Below are positions 1,501-55,469 of a DNA stretch of 64,000 nucleotides, piece by piece. A program made the position numbers and the translations under genes. Location of the stretch: the NCBI RefSeq assembly GCF_006345805.1, contig NC_043005.1, forward strand, positions 57,598,001 through 57,662,000, in the 5' to 3' direction. The notes under the pieces were generated by a model. The model had not been told where the DNA came from, searched no databases, and worked only from the letters and a program-made list of their open reading frames with translations. The DNA comes from Octopus sinensis (lineage: Eukaryota). Every line of letters begins with the position of its first letter. The first letter of the stretch is position 1.

Positions 1501-3127
1501 TTATTTCTTTATTACCCACCAGGGGCTACGAAGATTGGCTTACATAACAAAACATGGGGGACATAGAACAATATGATTAAATTTATGAGCAAATGAATAT
1601 TAAAATGAAAATGATAATATGAAAGCGATGCTAACGGCCCCCTCCGCCAGCATCACTTACCTGTCCTTTTGTTTTCACTGTCACCTGAATGTTCATTCCC
1701 AATACGAAGACCATCCATATCCATTCCTACTCCGAAACTGTCCTCCATATATTCCACGAATTCATCGCTCATTCTTGTATCTTTCACCTCCCAATTCTCC
1801 CTTTCACACCTCAACACAAACTCATCTATATTCTTCTTTTCCAGCACTGCATATCTGGTCCCATCCATTTCATACCATTCATACTCCTCCATTACCCTTG
1901 TAACTTCTTTCTGTTCAGTTACAATATAAATGTTCGGCCTGGGTTCGTTTTCAAACTCTTATCTCTGTCTGTATTAATATTTTTCTTTTGTTTTCTTGTT
2001 GGAGGGGAGCGGGTGGGTTCACTGTCTGCAGGGGAAGGGTGGGATTCAGAGGGCGTGGGTGGTGTTGGGGTGGGTTGGGGCTTCGCACAGTTTTTCTTTT
2101 TCTTTCTTTTTCTCTTTTTTCTGCCTTCTTCCCACTCTTGTTGCATCTCCTCTTCTTCTGTCGTTTCTTTTTCCGTTTGGTTCTCTTTGGTTTCTTCCTC
2201 TTTTGGGGCGACGATTTCCTTTTCTTTTTCCTTTGGTGGGGGAGGGCAGTAGGCTCTTATGTGACCCCTCAGGCCACACTTGTAGCACCTGGGCGCCCTA
2301 CCCTCCACCCACACTCTCATAATAATATTTCCAGTTTTTATACTGTCCGTAATCCTTTCTATAACTTCCGCCTCCGTCTGTATGTTCATTACTAGTGTGG
2401 CACCTCTCACACCTTCATATTTCATAATGGCGTGGAGGATGTCCACTTTATCTTCATTTCCTTTGATAACCGCAGCCGTTATTAATTCGCCCTCTAGGTG
2501 TGGAGGTATTCCTTCCACCCTAATTCTGGTGGTCCTTCTATTCAAATACGAGGGGAACAAGTAAATCTTTTCTGTACTCACCACCTTGGCTGCTACATTC
2601 CTGGCTGCTTTCTCACTTTTAAATTGTACCGTTATGGTTCCATATTGTAATCCTTTTGTCATGTACACAATTTCTTCTCCTGTCTGTTTGAGAGCCTCTT
2701 CAATTGCTTCCATGTTAATCACTTCCATTTTTCTACCTCCATTCATAAATACTTTATATTTAATGGTTCTACGATGGAACCAGTCTCCGCGCCCTGCTGG
2801 AGGCAACAGCTCTACCTCTCAGTTATCCTCCTCCTTCATGAACTCCTGGAAGCCCGTCAACTTAGCCAGGTCTATCTCTTTTTCTGTTGACTTCTTCGTT
2901 ATACCTGCGTAGGTGCTTTCCATTTTTTTCACCGCCAACTCCTCCTCAGATGTCGCAGAATTTTCAGAGAAATTTCTCCCTTCCATCTCGTCCGTTTGGT
3001 AGAGGCGGCTCATAGTCGCCTCAGACCGAAAAACGGTCTTCCGAACCGAATAAGTACAACGCGCAGAACCAGTGAAACGCGAAACCGCATCAACGACGTT
3101 CAAAATTTCACAACAACAACCATTCAC
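1501..3127 (-). mobile_element. ORF1-only (HAL1-like) non-LTR retroelement of L1/Tx1 type
   Basis: GC-richer 5' UTR, ORF1 with CCHC knuckle, ~150 nt 3' UTR ending gggtaataaagaaataa; no ORF2 between ORF1 and the tail. Confidence 0.65.
1653..3013 (-). pseudogene. Retrotransposon ORF1 (gag-like zinc-knuckle protein), disrupted
   Basis: ORFs 2819-3127 and 1919-2806 are in frame across one TGA at 2819-2821; motif CYKCGLRGHIRAYC (CX2CX4HX4C); probable frameshift near 1960 into ORF 1653-1892. Confidence 0.8.
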
Positions 3128-3726
3128 TTTTTGTTCTTTTTTCTTTTTTAACCGAATTTTACAGAGCGCAAAAAAAAACGCGACCTTTTTTCTCTACATT
3201 GTATACTTTATAGACAATAGTCTTTTCTTTAATTTAATTTTTTATTATCCATCTGGACTATTCCATTTCTGCACGCTAATTTTATTTTTAATTTATTCCC
3301 ATTCATGTGAAACCACTTATTCAAGTTCAAGTCATTGATGCAATTTTATACCAATTGCTATTTTTACTTTTTTTTTATATTACGATTATATTATACTTTA
3401 GTTTGATTTTAATTATTACTTACTACATATAATTCAATTGTAAATATTATTTTTATTGTTAAAGTGAAAGTATCTGACATAAAATAGAGAAATGTTTTTG
3501 TTTCACTTTTAACACGTAATACTGAAATAGTGGAAAAGATATGATATTGCTATGGGCTCGCTCTAGGCAAGAAGTTGAACATTCTTTTTGCCCATGAAAC
3601 TACATGGACCCTAAGTAAGGCATGTGTAAAATTTGAATGAAATTGGTTCTGTAGTTCTCAAGTTTTAGGGAAACACACAGACAGACAGACAGACAGACAG
3701 ACACACATTCTCAGTTTTATATATAT

Positions 3727-3772
<46 letters not shown>

Positions 3773-3814
3773 TATTGTATGATTGAACGCCACGCATCCA
3801 TTTCCAGTAAGTTT

Positions 3815-3891
<77 letters not shown>

Positions 3892-3912
3892 ATATATATA
3901 TATATATATATA

Positions 3913-4655
3913 TCTCAGTTGGAGTGCACACATCAACAATAAGGTCGATATAGCTCGTAGAATGAGTTCCTGGATCTTAAGAACTTTCCGGTCCAGAGAA
4001 CAAGGTGTCATCATACCACTTTTCTCCTCTTTTGTACGGCCACACCTCGAATACTACTGCCCACTGTGGTCTCCCCATACAAGACAAAACATCTCGAGGA
4101 TTGAATCACCCCAGAGGGCACTCACTAAACGAATTGAAGGCATGGCTGCTCTTGATTATTGGGACCGCCTTAAAGCCTTGAAACTCTACTCTCTCCAGCG
4201 TCGCCGTGAGCGGTACATTATTTGTACGATGTGGAGAATATACCGCCAAATTTGCCCAAACGATCTGAACATTAGCTTCAAGGTTCATCTAAGACTGGGA
4301 CCACGGGCAATACGTCCCCTGCCCAATTCAAGATCACAGCATACATGTACACTGCAACATAATTTCTTTTCCTCAACAGGCCCTGCCCTATTAAACTTTA
4401 TCCCGAAAGAGATCAAAGAGGAAAAGGATTCCATCAACTTTAAACGGAGTCTGGATAGATTCCTTCAAGGAATACCAGATAAACCACCCATAATTGGATA
4501 CAACTCACCCAACAAAAACACACTACTTGAATGGACCATAAACAAAACTTGACTTAAACATGATTTAGATAATCCTATCAGGTGGTGCTATTAAGTTAGA
4601 CATGGCCTGGACCAATCTTTGGTTGAAACATGTCTAAGTTTTATCTAAGTTTTAT
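3913..4655 (+). mobile_element. 5'-truncated CR1/L2-group LINE (RT C-terminus plus 3' UTR)
   Basis: LSWSAHI...VRPHLEYYCPLWSPH...IESPQR...DYWDRLKALKLYSLQRRRER; stop at 4552; tandem tail tctaagtttta x2; flanked by (TA)n. Confidence 0.9.
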
Positions 4656-23185: not shown

Positions 23186-24701
23186 TTCAAAACATTAGAG
23201 TTCGCCGGTTAAATATACTAAAACACGGAGTAAAAGCAACCATTCTGATCATTTTGGCCGCTATGGGTTTTGCAGTAAATCACTAAATCATCCATAACAT
23301 TTTTATTATCCTCTCAAATTACACCAAAATCTCAGGCAATAACAAATAATATCGTATTCATTGTTTGTGAAAATTATAAAATATAAAACAACTTTGATAA
23401 AAAATTATATCTACTTTTCTGACGAAAACAATGCCGTTCTGAACATTTTGGCTGCCACTGTATATATATATATATATTATATATATATATATATTATATA
23501 TATATATATTATATTATATAAGATTGTTAACAAGTCAAAAAGTGTTGTACACCGTATTCTTAAGGTCTACGATGATTGTGGTTCGTGTGAAGCAAGAAAG
23601 TTTACAGCGGCAGGCCAAGGAAAACGACCAAGAGAGAAGATCGTGCTATGGTTAAAGTTGGTTAAAAAGGACAGATTTAAAACTGCTGCTGCTGTTTCTC
23701 GGAAAATGAGCATTGTATTGAAGAAAACTTTATCTCGAAAAACTCTGTCTCGTCGTTTAGTTGAACATGACCTACAAGCAAGAGCACCTGCAGTGAAGCC
23801 ACTGATCAGCTCCAAGAATAAAAAGTGTTGTCTTACCTTTGCAACCGAACATGTGTTGTGGTCTCAAGAAAAATGGCAAACGGTGCATTTCAGTGATGAA
23901 TCTAAGTTTATGTTATTTGGCTCAGATGGGAAAAGTAGGTGAAAAATTATCGCCTAAATGCCTTAAGACTAGTATTAAATTCGGTGGAGGAAGTGTCATG
24001 GTTTGGGGTATGATATCTGGAGATGGTGTGGGCCCTTTGGTGCGATTACATGGAAAGGTAAATGCAGGAGTTTATAAACAACTTGTAAAAGATCATGTCT
24101 TGCCTGTGCTGAGAAATTCAACTAAGCGACCATCCATATTCATGCAGGACAATGCCCCATGTCACAAGGCTAAGGTGGTCATAAACTTCCTCAAGCTGAA
24201 AAGGTTTATGTTATGGATTGGCCTGCTCAAAGCCCAGATCTCAATCCTATTGAAAATGTATGGAATATCTAGAGAACGTTCGAAAGCCAGAAATCCTGAA
24301 ACAACTGAGCAATTACGGAATGCCCTTCAGGAAGAATGGAATAAGATCACCCAGCAAAAATTGAAAATTTAATTTCCTCATGCAGTCGAAGATGTCAGAG
24401 TGTGATTGAAGCTAAAGGGCTTCACACGAAATATTAAATAATTCCAGTATTCTCTGTCATTTTTGATTATTTTGTTATTTTTTAACCGTTCTGATCATTT
24501 TGGCTGCCATAGTTTTGCAGTAAATCACTAAATCATCCATAACTTTTGTATTATCCTCTCAATTTACAACAAAATCTCAGACAATAACAATTAATATTGT
24601 ATTTATTGTCTGTGAAAATTATAGAATATAGAACTATTTTGAATACAAACTTATACTTACTTTTCTGACGAAAACAATGCCGTCTGAACATTTTGGCCGC
24701 C

Positions 24702-33890: not shown

Positions 33891-34183
33891 GACATAATAC
33901 TGCTCCTATATGATCATCTGGCGCAGGCATGGTGGTGTGGTAAGTCCGCGGGTTCAGTCTCACTGCGTGGCACCTTAGGCAAGTGTCTTCTACTATAGCC
34001 TTGGGTCAACCAAAACCTTGTGAGTGGATTTGGTAGATGGAAACTGAAAGAGACCCAAATGTGTGTGTGTGTTGACAACCGGTATTGGTTTGTTTACGTC
34101 CCCATAACACAACGGTTTGGCAAAACAGACTGATAGAATAAGTACCAGGTGTATAAAAATAAATACTGGAGTCAATTCGTTCG

Positions 34184-34348
34184 ATTGTATCAGGGCATAG
34201 AAGCCACGAGAGACACTGCCTGGTATTGTAATAGGGCATAGAAGCCACGAGAGTCACTGCCTGGTATTGTAATAGGGTAGAAGCCACGAGAGTCACTGCC
34301 TGGTATTGTAATAGGGCATAGAAGCCACGAGAGTCACTGCCTGGTATT
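34184..34348. repeat. 41-bp minisatellite, 4 copies
   Basis: aagccacgagagtcactgcctggtattgtaatagggcatag at 34201, 34242, 34281, 34322. Confidence 0.95.
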
Positions 34349-34891
34349 TACTAAGATTAGTAAACTGTCAAATAATGCCAATTGCCTTCTATGGGGCAGG
34401 AATATAGGCAACGTGCATAACTGGACAGAAAAAGATAGAAACCTTTGAAATGCTCTCGTCTTTCACAGACGGGGCAGGATAAGTTGGAAGGACAGAGCGA
34501 TAAATGCTGGAGTAATACAAAAGCTGAAAGCTTAATGACACCTTTTCTTGAGAATGGAATCCACAAGCTATCATATTTTGACATACAATGCACCACGAGT
34601 CAAAGCCCAAGACCAACGTGACAGATAGTGTCCGGAGAAAGAGAGTGAAAAACCGCCAAAGTCGTTTGTGAATCGATGAAAGAAGAGCGTGGCTGATTGT
34701 ATGCATACAGCACAACACAGAAGGAACCGGAGTCTTGGCAAGCCGACCACTGGACAAAAGGAAAGTTTGGCTACATACACACACACACACTAAAAAAATA
34801 GGGAATTGAGTCGATAATAAAACCTGACTATATATGTTATATAGCTAACGGAACCGCGAAAGTAGTAAATTATCCAAAACGAGGGGTATAT

Positions 34892-34923
<32 letters not shown>

Positions 34924-34965
34924 CATACATATATATATATTATATATATATATATATTACATATA

Positions 34966-37900
34966 ACATGGAATGTTTATAAATCATATATCCGGTAAAT
35001 GGCGGGCTTTTTTACGAACTGCATGTCGGGTAATGAAAAGTATTCGGAATAAGTTTAACAATTAAGGATAATCTCTTAATAAGGGATCTTATTCCATGTG
35101 CTTGGCGGCCGGAGTGAGCAGTTGTCTGTTGTCTTCGCTACGTAAGGTTGGTAGTTTATTTAGGATGTATTCAGAATCAGTTTGCTGACGATCATTAGAC
35201 GTAAAGTTGAATGTGAAATCACGGTGATACAGAACTAAATTCATTTTTTTAAATGTCTTGTTTTGAAAAACTGCATTTGGGTATGATTAGTATAATTTTG
35301 GTAGTAATGACTTTGTCCCTCCTAGTGTGAGGCATTTATGTGTAATAATGCCCTCTATACAATATAGATATAATTAATTTGTTCAAAAGAAAAAAATTAT
35401 TTTCGAATTCTTTTCTTTTACGAGGTTTTCACGCTAGCTACCCGATAATTTCTTGTTAAGATCCCTTATTAAGAGTTATCCTTAATTGTTAAACTTATTC
35501 CGAAATACTTTTCATTACCCGACATGCAGTTCGTAAAAAAGCCCGCCATTTACCGGATAATGATTTATAAACATTCCATGTGCTTGCCGGAGTGAGCAGT
35601 TGTCTGTTTGTCTTCGCTACGTTAGGTTGGTAGTTTATTTATGATGTATTCAGAATCAGTTCTGCTGACGATCATTAGACGTAAAGTTGAATGTGAAATC
35701 ACGGTGATACAGAACTAAATTCATTTTTTTAAATGTCTTGCTTTGAAAAACTGCATTTGGGTATGATTAGTATAATTTTGGTAGTAATGACTTTGTCCCT
35801 CCTAGTGTGAGGCATTTATGGTAATAATGCCCCTTATACAATATAGATATAATTAATTTGTTCAAAAGAAAAAAATTATTTTCGAATTCTTTTCTTTTAC
35901 AGGTTTTCACGCTAGCTACCCGATAATTTCTTGTTAAGATCCCTTATTAAGAGATTATCCTTAATGTTAAACTTATTCCGAAATACTTTTCATTACCCGA
36001 CATGCAGTTCGTAAAAAAAGCCGCCATTTACCGGATATATGATTTATAAACATTCCATGTGCTTGGCCGGAGTGAGCAGTTGTCTGTTTGTCTTCGCTAC
36101 GTAAGGTTGGTAGTTTATTTATGATGTATTCAGAATCAGTTCTGCTGACGATCATTAGACGTAAAGTTGAATGTGAAATCACGGTGATACAGAAATAAAT
36201 TCATTTTTTTAAATGTCTTGCTTTGAAAAACTGCATTTGGGTATGATTAGTATAATTTTGGTAGTAATGACTTTGTCCCTCCTAGTGTGAGGCATTTATG
36301 TGTAATAATGCCCTCATACAATATAGATATAATTAATTTGTTCAAAAGAAAAAAATTATTTTCGAATTCTTTTCTTTTACGAGGTTTTCACGCTAGCTAC
36401 CCGATAATTTCTTGTTAAGATCCCTTATTAAGAGATTATCCTTAATTGTTAAACTTATTCCGAAATACTTTCATTACCCGACATGCAGTTCGTAAAAAGC
36501 CCGCCATTTACCGGATATATGATTTATAAACATTCCATGTGCTTGGCCGGAGTGAGCAGTTGTCTGTTTGTCTTCGCTACGTAAGGTTGGTAGTTATTTA
36601 TGATGTATTCAGAATCAGTTCTGCTGACGATCATTAGACGTAAAGTTGAATGTGAAATCACGGTGATACAGAACTAATTCATTTTTTTAAATGTCTTGCT
36701 TTGAAAAACTGCATTTGGGTATGATTAGTATAATTTGGTGTAGTAATGACCTTGTCCCTCCTAGTGTGAGGCATTTATGTGTAATAATGCCCTCTATACA
36801 ATATAGATATAATTAATTTGTTAAAAAGAAAAAAATTATTTTCGAATTCTTTTCTTTTACGAGGTTTTCACGCTAGCTACCCGATAATTTCTTGTAAGAT
36901 CCCTTATTAAGAGATTATCCTTAATTGTAAACTTATTCCGAAATACTTTTCATTACCGACATGCAGTTCGTAAAAAGCCCGCCATTTACGGATATATGAT
37001 TTATAAACATTCCATGTGCTTGGCCGGAGTGAGCAGTTGTCTGTTTGTCTTCGCTACGTAAGGTTGGTAGTTATTTATGATGTATTCAGAATCAGTTCTG
37101 CTGACGATCATTAGACGTAAGTGAATGTGAAATCACGGTGATACAGAACTAAATCATTTTTTAAATGTCTTGCTTTGAAAAACTGCATTTGGGTATGATT
37201 AGTAAATTTTGGTAGTAGTAGTAATGACTTTGTCCCTCCTAGTGTGAGGCATTTATGTGTAATAATGCCCTCTATACATATAGATATAATTAATTTGTTC
37301 AAAAGAAAAAAATTATTTTCGAATTCTTTTCTTTTACGAGGTTTTCACGCTAGGCACCCGATAATTTCTTGTTAAGATCCCTTATTAAGAGATTATCCTA
37401 ATTGTTAAACTTATTCCAAATACTTTTCATTACCCGACATGCAGTTCGTAAAAAAGCCCGCCATTTACCGGATATATGATTTATAAACATTCCATGTGCT
37501 TGGCCGGAGTGAGCAGTGTGTCTGTTTGTCTTCGCTACGTAAGGTGGTAGTTTATTTATGATGTATTCAGAATCAGTTCTGCTGACGATCATTAGACGTA
37601 AAGTTGAATGTGAAATCACGGGATACAGAACTAAATTCATTTTTTTAAATGTCTTGCTTTGAAAAACTGCATTTGGGTATGATTAGTATAATTTTGGTAG
37701 TAATGACTTTGTCCCTCCTAGTGTGAGGCATTTATGTGTGTAATAATGCCCTCTATACAATATAGATATAATTAATTTGTTCAAAAGAAAAAAATTATTT
37801 TCGAATTCTTTTCTTTTACGAGGTTTTCACGCTAGCTACCCGATAATTTCTTGTTAAGATCCCTTATTAAGAGATTATCCTTAATTGTTATTAAACTTAT

Positions 37901-38850
37901 TCCGAATACTTTCATTACCCGACATGCAGTTCGTAAAAAAGCCCGCCATTTACCGGATATATGATTTATAAACATTCCATGTGCTTGGCCGGAGTGAGCA
38001 GTTGTCTGTTTGTCTTCGCTACGTAAGGTTGGTAGTTTATTTATGATGTATTCAGAATCAGTTCTGCTGACGATCATTAGACGTAAAGTTGAATGTGAAA
38101 TCACGGTGATACAGAACTAAATTCATTTTTTTAAATGTCTTGCTTTGAAAAACTGCATTTGGGTATGATTAGTATAATTTTGGTAGTAATGACTTTGTCC
38201 CTCCTAGTGTGAGGCATTTATGTGTAATAATGCCCTCTATACAATATAGATATAATTAATTTGTTCAAAAGAAAAAAATTATTTTCGAATTCTTCTTTTA
38301 CGAGGTTTTCACGCTAGCTACCCGATAATTTCTTGTTAAGATCCCTTATTAAGAGATTATCCTTAATTGTTAAACTTATTCCAAATACTTTCATTACCCG
38401 ACATTGCAGTTCGTAAAAAAGCCCGCCATTTACCGGATATGTGATTTATAAACATTCCATGTGCTTGGCCGGAGTGAGCAGTTGTCTGTTTGTCTTCGCT
38501 ACGTAAGGTTGTAGTTTATTTATGATGTATTCAGAATCAGTTCTGCTGACGATCATTAGACGTAAAGTGAATGTGAAATCACGGTGATACAGAACTAAAT
38601 TCATTTTTTTAAATGTCTTGCTTTGAAAAACTGCATTTGGGTATGATTAGTAAATTTTGGTAGTAATGACTTTGTCCCTCCTAGTGTGAGGCATTTATGT
38701 GTAATAATGCCCTCTATACAATATAGATATAATTAATTTGTTCAAAAGAAAAAAATTATTTTCGAATTCTTTTCTTTTACGAGGTTTTCACGCTAGCTAC
38801 CCGATAATTTCTTGTTAAGATCCCTTATTAAGAGATTATCCTTAATTGTT

Positions 38851-38853
<3 letters not shown>
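34966..38853 (+). mobile_element. Retrozyme / PLE-like tandem array: inverted 5' fragment plus ~8 x 480-bp units
   Basis: CTGACGA cores at 35185, 35665, 36145, 36624, 37101, 37582, 38067, 38546; 34966-35091 is the reverse complement of part of the unit; (TA)n on both sides. Confidence 0.9.
35658..35716 (+). ncRNA. Type I hammerhead ribozyme (representative of the 8 array copies)
   Basis: agttctg CTGACGA t catt..aatg t GAAA tcac g gtga TA cagaact; predicted cleavage after 35709. Confidence 0.85.
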
Positions 38854-38902
<49 letters not shown>

Positions 38903-38921
38903 ATATAATATAGATCATCAG

Positions 38922-39260
38922 ACGCAGGCGTGGTGGTGTGGTAAGTTCTCGGGTTTAGTCCTACTGCGTGGCGCCTTAGGCAAGTGTTTTCTACTATAGC
39001 CTCGGGTCAACCAAAGCATTGTGAGTGGATTTGGTAGATGGAAACTGAAAGGGACCCAATCTATGTGTGTGTGTGTGTTGTGTATATATGTTGACAACCG
39101 GTGTTGGTTTGTTTACGTCCCCGTAACACATAGGTTTGGCAAAAGAGATCGATAGAATATGTTCCAGGAGTATAAAAATAAATACTGGGGTCGATTCGTT
39201 CGACTAAAATTCTTCAAGCCAGTGTCCAAGTATGGCTGTAGTTTAATGACAAACAAATAA
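38922..39260 (+). mobile_element. Family 3 composite SINE
   Basis: tRNA-like head, internal (TG)n and tail; closely related to 33920-34184. Confidence 0.85.
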
Positions 39261-46838: not shown

Positions 46839-46890
<52 letters not shown>

Positions 46891-47045
46891 TATAATTAAG
46901 GGTATCTAAGAGATGCCAAATGCTAGATATAGCAGTCAAAACTTGACTCTAAAACCACATTCAATGTTCATACAGCACCAGAGAGAAGACAAAAACACAA
47001 AAAAAACTAGCAAAAAATTACTGGATAATTCCAGATCCTGGATTT

Positions 47046-47272
47046 CTCCGAGTTTCGAATGTCGGGGCGGAAATCTGCTCTGGCATCTCGTCAGTTATTA
47101 AGACAATCCAAAAATGCTATGAAAATGACCGTTAAACAAAGGGAATCAAAAAATGCTATAGTAATTTCCCTTTGTTTAACGGTAATTTTCATAGCGTTTT
47201 TTGATTGTTTTAATAATTGAAGAGATGCCGGAGTAGATTTCCACCCCGACATCCGAAACTCGGAGTTTTATT
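47046..47272 (+). ncRNA. Inverted pair of hammerhead motifs in a PLE-like fold-back
   Basis: Plus 47212-47272: aataa TTGAAGA gatg..catc c GAAA ctc g gag TT ttatt; the minus copy 47046-47099 has an intact CTGACGA. Confidence 0.75.
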
Positions 47273-47301
47273 ATGGCAACCAAATAATTGTCACATATTA
47301 C

Positions 47302-47347
<46 letters not shown>

Positions 47348-50105: not shown

Positions 50106-50416
50106 TAATTTAAAGGTGACACGCTTGGTCGCGTCAACAAATGGATGAGGGTTCGAATCACACGCGGATAGGAAAGCCGTCTTTTTTCTGTCGAGGACTT
50201 ATACGCCCCTTTATTAGACTATTTTCCTTAGTCATTGCACGGTGATCGTCATAAGCTTTAAGCTTATAAAAAAAAACATTGTTATTATTTACAGGATTGT
50301 AAATCACAGCGCCGTAATAACAAATTATTCGCTCCAATATATATACATATATATATCTTTCGTCACTAGATCATATATCCTAAAAAGAAGCACATTTTAT
50401 AAGTTTGACCAGTAAC

Positions 50417-50770
50417 ATATATACAGGAGGTTACTCATATGACCGGTCATATTTACAGGAGGTTTCTCATATGACCGGTCATATTTACAGGAAGTTACTC
50501 ATATGACCGGTCATATTTACAGGAAGTTACTCATATGACCGGTCATATTTACAGGAGGTTACTCATATGACCGGTCATATTTACAGGAGGTTACTCATAT
50601 GACCGGTCATATTTACAGGAGGTTACTCATATGACCGGTCATATTTACAGGAAGTTACTCATATGACCGGTCATATTTACAGGAAGTTACTCATATGACC
50701 GGTCATATTTACAGGAAGTTACTCATATGACCGGTCATATTTACAGGAAGTTACTCATATGACCGGTCAT
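50417..50770. repeat. 32-bp minisatellite, 11 copies, containing a 16-bp palindrome
   Basis: atatttacagga(a/g)gttactcatatgaccggtc; gaccggtc every 32 bp from 50441 to 50761. Confidence 0.97.
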
Positions 50771-50836
50771 GGTTTTACACCCATAAAACGTTTAGCCTTA
50801 AAGTCGTCTCGCCAGACTCTAATGACTACGGGCATT

Positions 50837-50898
50837 AGAGTCTGACGAGGTGTCTCTAATGCTAAGTGATTTATAGATGCGAAACTATTGGTTACTCT
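50837..50898 (+). ncRNA. Type I hammerhead ribozyme
   Basis: agagt CTGACGA g gtgtct..agatgc GAAA cta t tgg TT actct. Confidence 0.8.
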
Positions 50899-51280
50899 AT
50901 GACCGGACATACAATTAACTTCCTATAATATATATTTATACATACATTCTTACACACACACGCACATATATATATATACAAATCTGCGTGTATGTGTTTA
51001 AGTGGTAAAATATGAGCGTTCCCGAGTAAAGCAATATATATATATAATATATATACTCATGCATACATGCATACATACACACACACACACATACAGACAT
51101 ATATATATATGTATTCCACCTGCCTTCGTTTTGTTTATTTCAATAAAGCTTCCTGTTATATATATATATTATACTATATATATATATATATATAATATAA
51201 TACTATATATATATATATATAATATATATAATATATCTATATATATATATATATATATATATATAGATATCTATATATAT

Positions 51281-55297: not shown

Positions 55298-55469
55298 ATG
55301 TGACTCCGTGTGTATCATTGGCGATTTTCTTTCTCCGTCTTCCCTTCCTTGGAACTTTCCCGTTTCCATGTTTCTGACGAAGAGCTCCGCTCGAAACGTT
55401 AAATCCTCCTACTTTCTTTCCTTTCCTGAGCGTCCAATAACACTATACTTGTTCCACGTCCTCGCGTTG

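Follow-up and report, generated by a model that had tools for sequence, protein, structure and literature searches.

The analysis of the window (the whole stretch of octopus DNA considered here, 64,000 nucleotides long) suggests that the tandem array it harbors is, with moderate probability, one insertion of a young non-LTR retrozyme, written by the machinery of Penelope-like elements (PLEs) from a single RNA unit, probably a circle. The family to which the array belongs is a real, young retrozyme of a known class. The papers cited below, in their available text, already contain the retrozyme class itself, the hypotheses of PLE mobilization and of a circular template, and the one-ended tail; what is new here is the two-site bipolar layout of the insertions, together with the strict pairing of their two ends. 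The literature searched, which excludes most subscription papers and Repbase, contained no counts of end pairing or of locus-uniform variants, and no cephalopod retrozyme (octopus may, however, appear in the PMC7229834 supplement, which lies outside this literature); ribozyme, hammerhead and retrozyme are all unmentioned in the available text of PMC13282606.

The Array and Its Hammerhead Motifs

TRF returned, for the window, a period of 480 with 7.8 copies (35091-38857, 96% matches), in agreement with the sequence-only reading of eight near-identical units of about 480 bp, each with a type I hammerhead core. Indeed, eight CUGACGA cores are present on the forward strand, within the motifs at 35177-35236 (unit 1, core 35185, one stem I base missing), 35658-35716 (unit 2, core 35665), 36138-36196 (unit 3, core 36145, one stem I mismatch), 36617-36675 (unit 4, core 36624), 37094-37150 (unit 5, core 37101, a 2-nt loop deletion), 37575-37632 (unit 6, core 37582, one stem III base missing), 38060-38118 (unit 7, core 38067, palindromic stem III at 38100-38110) and 38539-38596 (unit 8, core 38546, a 1-nt loop deletion). 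The predicted cut falls after 38111 in unit 7 and after 35709 in unit 2, the latter being the very coordinate proposed before. The succession CUGACGA...GAAA...AUA was recognized in all eight units, and every described stem is intact in five of them, the single-base defects being those of units 1, 3 and 6. No ORF of at least 170 aa was found in the array, nor an ORF combining RT and GIY-YIG as in an autonomous PLE; the array is made up of tandem non-coding units, with a type I hammerhead motif in each and without LTR, as retrozymes are. The differences between units are mainly indels confined to one unit, as expected of long-read error, which is how they had been interpreted from the letters; the unit count at this locus is that of the assembly (7.8 x 480 bp).

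The U-U mismatch noticed earlier at the base of stem II turned out to be a property of the whole 480-bp family: among the family segments, U stands at one position in 220 of 221 and at the other in 222 of 223, and the single departure is a gap both times. The paired base expected there in a hammerhead (10.1-11.1) is therefore lacking throughout the family, and because of this the predicted ribozyme activity may be low. A search of the window sequence against Rfam, the check that had been recommended for the motif, gave no hammerhead match, either at the gathering score or at E<=10.

A sister family, 70-77% identical to the 480-bp unit, served as a covariation test of the hammerhead. The alignment comprised 23 of the 28 distinct sister motifs plus unit 7, five near-duplicate or damaged copies being omitted. 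In these 24 sequences the core (CUGAnGA, GAAA, UH) is invariant, the base of stem II is G-C in 18 and unpaired in 6, 94.6% of the cells are paired, and compensatory changes occur at eight pairs. The covariation score was reached by none of 500 shuffles, a test inflated by the kinship among the sequences, and pairing drops to 26-38% in slid controls. Judging from this alignment, the predicted hammerhead fold covaries with the sister family.

As regards stability, stem III alone remains unfolded (0.0), while as a two-copy duplex it reaches -11.9 kcal/mol. The hammerhead fold (-7.2 kcal/mol) is not the minimum-energy one (-12.9 kcal/mol), the RNAalifold consensus is not the hammerhead, and the 480-nt unit folded as a circular monomer has z = -3.8 against 40 shuffles. 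A double-hammerhead pattern, in which stem III is stable only between two copies, is described in the available text of PMC4209133. The octopus unit shares this weak stem III with newt satellite 2 (the accessible parts of PMC4209133 and PMC7229834), from which it differs in that its stem III is longer (4-5 bp) and its stem II begins with U-U.

The Repeat Family in the Genome

The dispersed copies anticipated for the unit do exist. A whole-genome search retrieved at least 283 matches (40 of 807 candidates scored), and the 150 listed are 95-100% identical to it. Exact patterns, whose counts are lower bounds, gave at least 213 junctions of one insertion end (site A, see below), at least 268 of the other (site B) and at least 515 hammerhead 30-mers, with 0 in the controls. 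The divergence within the family is only 1-2%; it is thus a young, dispersed repeat family with hundreds of insertions. The median span of 40 junction pairs is 644 bp, so that the eight-unit array of the window lies in the long tail of mostly short insertions. Sequencing runs containing the unit carry four organism labels and none is recorded as RNA; all 30 bins and the joint between units are covered by three runs whose RNA nature is a guess, and their contigs carry no information on strand, ends or circularity and would look alike for circles, multimers or DNA.

The family resembles the metazoan non-LTR retrozymes of coral, mussel and axolotl (PMC7229834) and of vertebrates (bioRxiv 10.64898/2026.07.22.740005), as far as the available text of these sources describes them. 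In both, the tandem units are non-coding and low in GC, with a single type I hammerhead in each; stem III is short and palindromic, favoring dimers; and a dependence on PLEs is proposed. However, the octopus unit (480 nt) is longer than the 150-450 bp range given in PMC7229834, and metazoan retrozymes are described as head-to-tail arrays, whereas the octopus copies are mostly head-to-head, with two strictly paired fixed ends and (TA)n. Moreover, circles have been demonstrated for metazoan retrozymes, while we infer them for the octopus family.

The sister family (L070-L099) is older, with a unit of about 490 nt and 2241 candidates; the base of its stem II is G-C, its A/B ends match those of the 480-bp family, and it would suit cleavage assays better than the latter. 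A third, roughly 520-bp repeat (L040:216-1090; 1919 candidates in the genome) carries a hammerhead-like core on the minus strand and ends in a hairpin followed by CUCUUAUA, as site B does.

Two Fixed Ends and a Head-to-Head Layout

Forty loci were examined, that is, the window and 39 others chosen as the best matches to the full unit, a sample that favors long arrays. In 31 of them the insertion is bipolar (head-to-head), with a 3' end of the element meeting (TA)n on each outer side and an inner junction that varies, mostly with an overlap of a few bases. Numbering the unit from q1 (37974, in unit 7 of the window), insertions end at site A (q~403-406) or at site B (q~276-283), about 125 nt apart; along the unit the predicted cut site comes first, with B 143 nt and A 268 nt further on. 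The combination A+B was found in 29 of the 31 bipolar loci, AA and BB in none, and A with another position in two, namely the window (q9) and L053 (q253). The nine unipolar loci end at A (eight) or B (one), and two of them, L064 and L065 (contig C29), are near-identical insertions with identical flanks 256 kb apart, which are not independent loci because they represent a segmental duplication or an uncollapsed haplotype.

The same rule emerged from exact junction lists (75 A and 100 B ends, from contigs C1 to part of C5), where all 40 divergent junction pairs are A+B (p about 1e-12); about 7 of these pairs coincide with fetched loci, and the 35 A and 60 B ends without an exactly matching partner were left unclassified in the pair count. 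In addition, loose ends in (TA) recur at these two positions in an independent DNA-like run (37 and 11 contigs), and several sister-family loci have A+B ends at the homologous sites. The A+B pairing of paired insertions is therefore strict.

The window locus is an exception to the A+B rule. As previously described, (TA)n microsatellites, detected as TRF runs, lie on both sides of the array (34887-34965 and 38855-38912); a target-site duplication is illegible inside them. The main arm (35091-38857, plus strand) consists of 7.8 head-to-tail units and ends at site A, whose junction to (TA)n (38850-38857, plus strand) is the right end of the insertion and has one C fewer than the usual junction; every unit covering the relevant sites has the haplotype 38t/77a/328c. 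Site B, although a family-wide insertion end, is unused as an end here; in unit 7 it corresponds to 38249-38254 (q276-281, plus strand) and is followed by the 125-nt "tail" between B and A (38255-38379, plus strand), with a strong hairpin at about 38324-38362. On the left, a 126-bp inverted piece (34966-35091, minus strand; q364-480 plus q1-9) is indeed present, as first noticed; rather than a mere 5' fragment, it is a short second arm, of atypical form, belonging to a two-ended insertion. The q9 position of its outer 3' end departs from the norm, and the resulting left junction occurs only once in the genome and adjoins the start of the main arm with a 9-nt overlap. This arm may derive from twin priming, or it may be a B arm whose outer part was lost. 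Mutually similar SINE-like sequences are located just beyond both (TA)n flanks (33921-34190 and 38925-39240).

The Probable Link with Penelope-like Elements

The 480-bp family exhibits the layout of PLE-mobilized sequences, that is, two 3' ends bounding a tail, an inverted truncated arm and a microsatellite target. According to the available text of PMC11167929, a PLE protein of Anolis cuts and extends both strands of AT-rich DNA in vitro, and synthesis on the RNA starts, downstream of the hammerhead, at two internal sites that delimit the tail seen in genomes and are alike on both strands. With PLEs, including Poseidon of Anolis in vitro (the accessible parts of PMC11167929, PMC8557442 and PMC3846280), the octopus family shares a hammerhead followed by two internal start sites, the one-ended tail, the inverted 5'-truncated arm (inverted pLTR) and the AT-rich target. 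It differs from them in having no ORF, a tail of about 125 nt versus 30-40, and arms of up to 10 whole units; moreover, the pairing of one long with one short end is strict by our counts, whereas the available text of the PLE papers calls the tail optional or often one-ended. We are highly confident that this two-site bipolar architecture ties the octopus retrozyme to the PLE machinery, a link that the two fixed start sites make stronger than had been argued from the sequence alone.

Coding elements with an RT core, a DKT motif and, at the C-terminal end, a GIY-YIG-type domain are abundant and young in this genome. They appear to match the motif description of the Hydra clade (the available text of PMC8557442), sharing with it the DKT motif, the C-terminal GIY-YIG-type domain, the (TA)n targets and the two-end layout; both this match and the PLE label are based on motifs. 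A coding PLE with the ends of the unit, as the sequence-only reading would have it, did not emerge: none of the sampled copies (of thousands of candidate copies) of about six coding families has DNA similarity to the unit. Two kinds of candidate partner were rejected: the PLE fragment found at a distance of 1 kb from an array of the sister family (L100) is a separate insertion, and the 3' ends of the sampled coding families gave only weak AT-rich matches or neighboring independent insertions (L162, L187, L222).

In the autonomous family P1, one long and one short end were found in all five evaluable bipolar copies, with a tail of 152 nt; three apparent "short/short" loci were discarded, two of them being long/short and one being cut by the locus edge. 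Tails in the other coding families measure roughly 85-180 nt, and the long ends of P1, P2 and P4 can finish in ACTTAT, like site A. These approximately six young autonomous families of Hydra type (L101-L164, L185-L224) have long tails and asparagine-rich linkers. Pfam gave no match on two octopus PLE ORFs and a sub-threshold RVT_1 on one of four homologues, a PDB search returned nothing, and some homologues carry wrong GATA or Myb names in public annotation. The homologues that bear names mark the host of these PLE proteins as an octopus.

The Template of the Insertions

The distribution of variants within and between loci points to one monomer template per insertion. Locus-fixed substitutions number 64, versus a shuffled mean of 4.6 (maximum 11 in 100 shuffles), and all 39 testable ones are present in both arms. 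Sixteen haplotypes were recognized in the 40 loci, several of which are private to one long array, and the 12 differences between arms each come from a single unit, as errors would. Such locus-uniform variants fit the previous suggestion that the array was copied in one event from one unit. A further 28 variants are common to only part of a locus, many of them beside indels. At one site of one locus (L059), c and t alternate over seven units (c | t c t c t c), as would be expected from a dimer circle; in L035, what looked like a period-3 insertion was dismissed as noise. Neither an indel excess nor a significant enrichment of inner junctions (7/71, p=0.17) was found at the cut site, so that the arms, which span up to about 10 cut sites without extra variation, read cleanly through it. 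Since the joints are clean, a ligated circle is favored over end-to-end jumping, and the variant patterns favor, with moderate confidence, a single circular template.

It is also conceivable, though we consider it unlikely, that the same two-site priming by a PLE used an uncleaved linear multimeric transcript, the ribozyme being slow or incidental; the uniform long arrays would then derive from source arrays that were themselves uniform and from tandem growth following insertion. In agreement with this idea, stem II begins with U-U, the ribozyme is dispensable for insertion in vitro by the Anolis PLE (available text of PMC11167929), and the contigs of the guessed RNA runs, which cross the unit joint, fit multimers equally well. 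The same applies to variants shared by blocks of units in L061 (6 of 10 adjacent units) and L068 (5 of 7), which fit a later expansion or a template switch. However, private variants are fixed over both inverted arms of long arrays (15/15 in L031, 9/9 in L032, 8/8 in L039 and 6/6 in L066); since the family is only slightly diverged, a linear multimer would need repeated single-unit bottlenecks and an independent expansion of both arms. The maintenance of the hammerhead core and stems across about 25% divergence also argues against an incidental ribozyme.

A single priming event, with the inverted arm generated by fold-back or self-priming and its end trimmed by the endonuclease, as discussed in the accessible parts of PMC3846280 and PMC8557442, would explain the identical haplotypes of the two arms, and the end of the inverted arm of the window (q9), which abuts the start of the main arm (q1), recalls twin priming or fold-back. 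This model appears very unlikely: the arms show no consistent nesting, their lengths are uncorrelated (rho -0.16, p=0.39) and either may be the longer one (B in 17 and A in 12 of 29 loci), which disfavors it, and the inner junctions join distant unit positions without palindromes. Lastly, we consider it most improbable that the array is a common satellite propagated by events at the DNA level, or that misassembly inflated it, as the read-error-like indels of single units and a unit number known from the assembly are outweighed by the fixed ends, the strict A+B pairing, the (TA)n targeting, the locus-specific substitutions and the presence of the unit joint and of both end junctions in the independent DNA-like run.

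A Possible Mechanism

According to the reading that we prefer, insertion from a single, probably circular, RNA unit, tandem transcripts would self-cleave as double hammerheads into 480-nt monomers, which would be ligated, and the enzyme would roll round the circle up to about 10 times; we regard these steps as reasonably likely. It is very probable that a PLE protein of Hydra type would cut (TA)n and start its two cDNAs at different sites, one at A and one at B, and these would join head-to-head at short microhomologies. At the window locus the second arm would be aberrant, being short and ending at q9. Several observations weigh against this reading, namely the U-U at the foot of stem II, the minimum-energy fold, the consensus fold and the Rfam result, none of which favors the hammerhead, the dispensable ribozyme and the strand-independent start sites of the Anolis system, the partly shared variants, the lack of a coding PLE similar to the unit among the sampled copies, and the departure of the window locus from the A+B rule. 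More tentatively, and with somewhat more doubt than conviction, we speculate that an asymmetric PLE dimer might act on one covalently closed 480-nt RNA, its two RTs priming at A and B, rolling with strand displacement and meeting head-to-head.

Both the PLE mobilization of animal retrozymes and a circular template have so far been hypotheses drawn from co-occurrence and pLTR similarity. If the asymmetric dimer were correct, these insertions would provide genomic proof that the circles of animal retrozymes are the template of retrotransposition, as well as a general one-long-one-short rule for PLE integration. They also bear on a remaining question, the origin of tailed, inverted PLE insertions. 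Moreover, these young insertions run into the hundreds and are naturally barcoded, and their two start sites are mapped; they yield exact predictions for the in vitro PLE system, concerning which strand starts where and on which RNA form, with the 480-nt unit as a minimal substrate.

Other Elements in the Window

A short element whose hammerhead-like motif is minimal (CUGACGA..GAAAC) occurs twice, at 55374 (plus strand) and 63503 (minus strand); each copy ends in (TA)n, and the two likely represent another PLE-dependent family. A small head-to-head inverted element (46840-47343) lies between two (TA)n runs, and its minus strand carries a hammerhead-like core at 47094. Fragments at 1919-2818 (minus strand), 3641-4552 (plus strand) and 23343-24372 (plus strand) resemble what we take to be, respectively, a gag-like ORF with a zinc knuckle, the C-terminus of a LINE RT and a Tc1-like transposase. 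Finally, an 11-copy tandem repeat of 32 bp (50416-50910) is followed by a hammerhead-like core at 50842, and the sequence after the GAAA of this core resembles the 32-bp unit.
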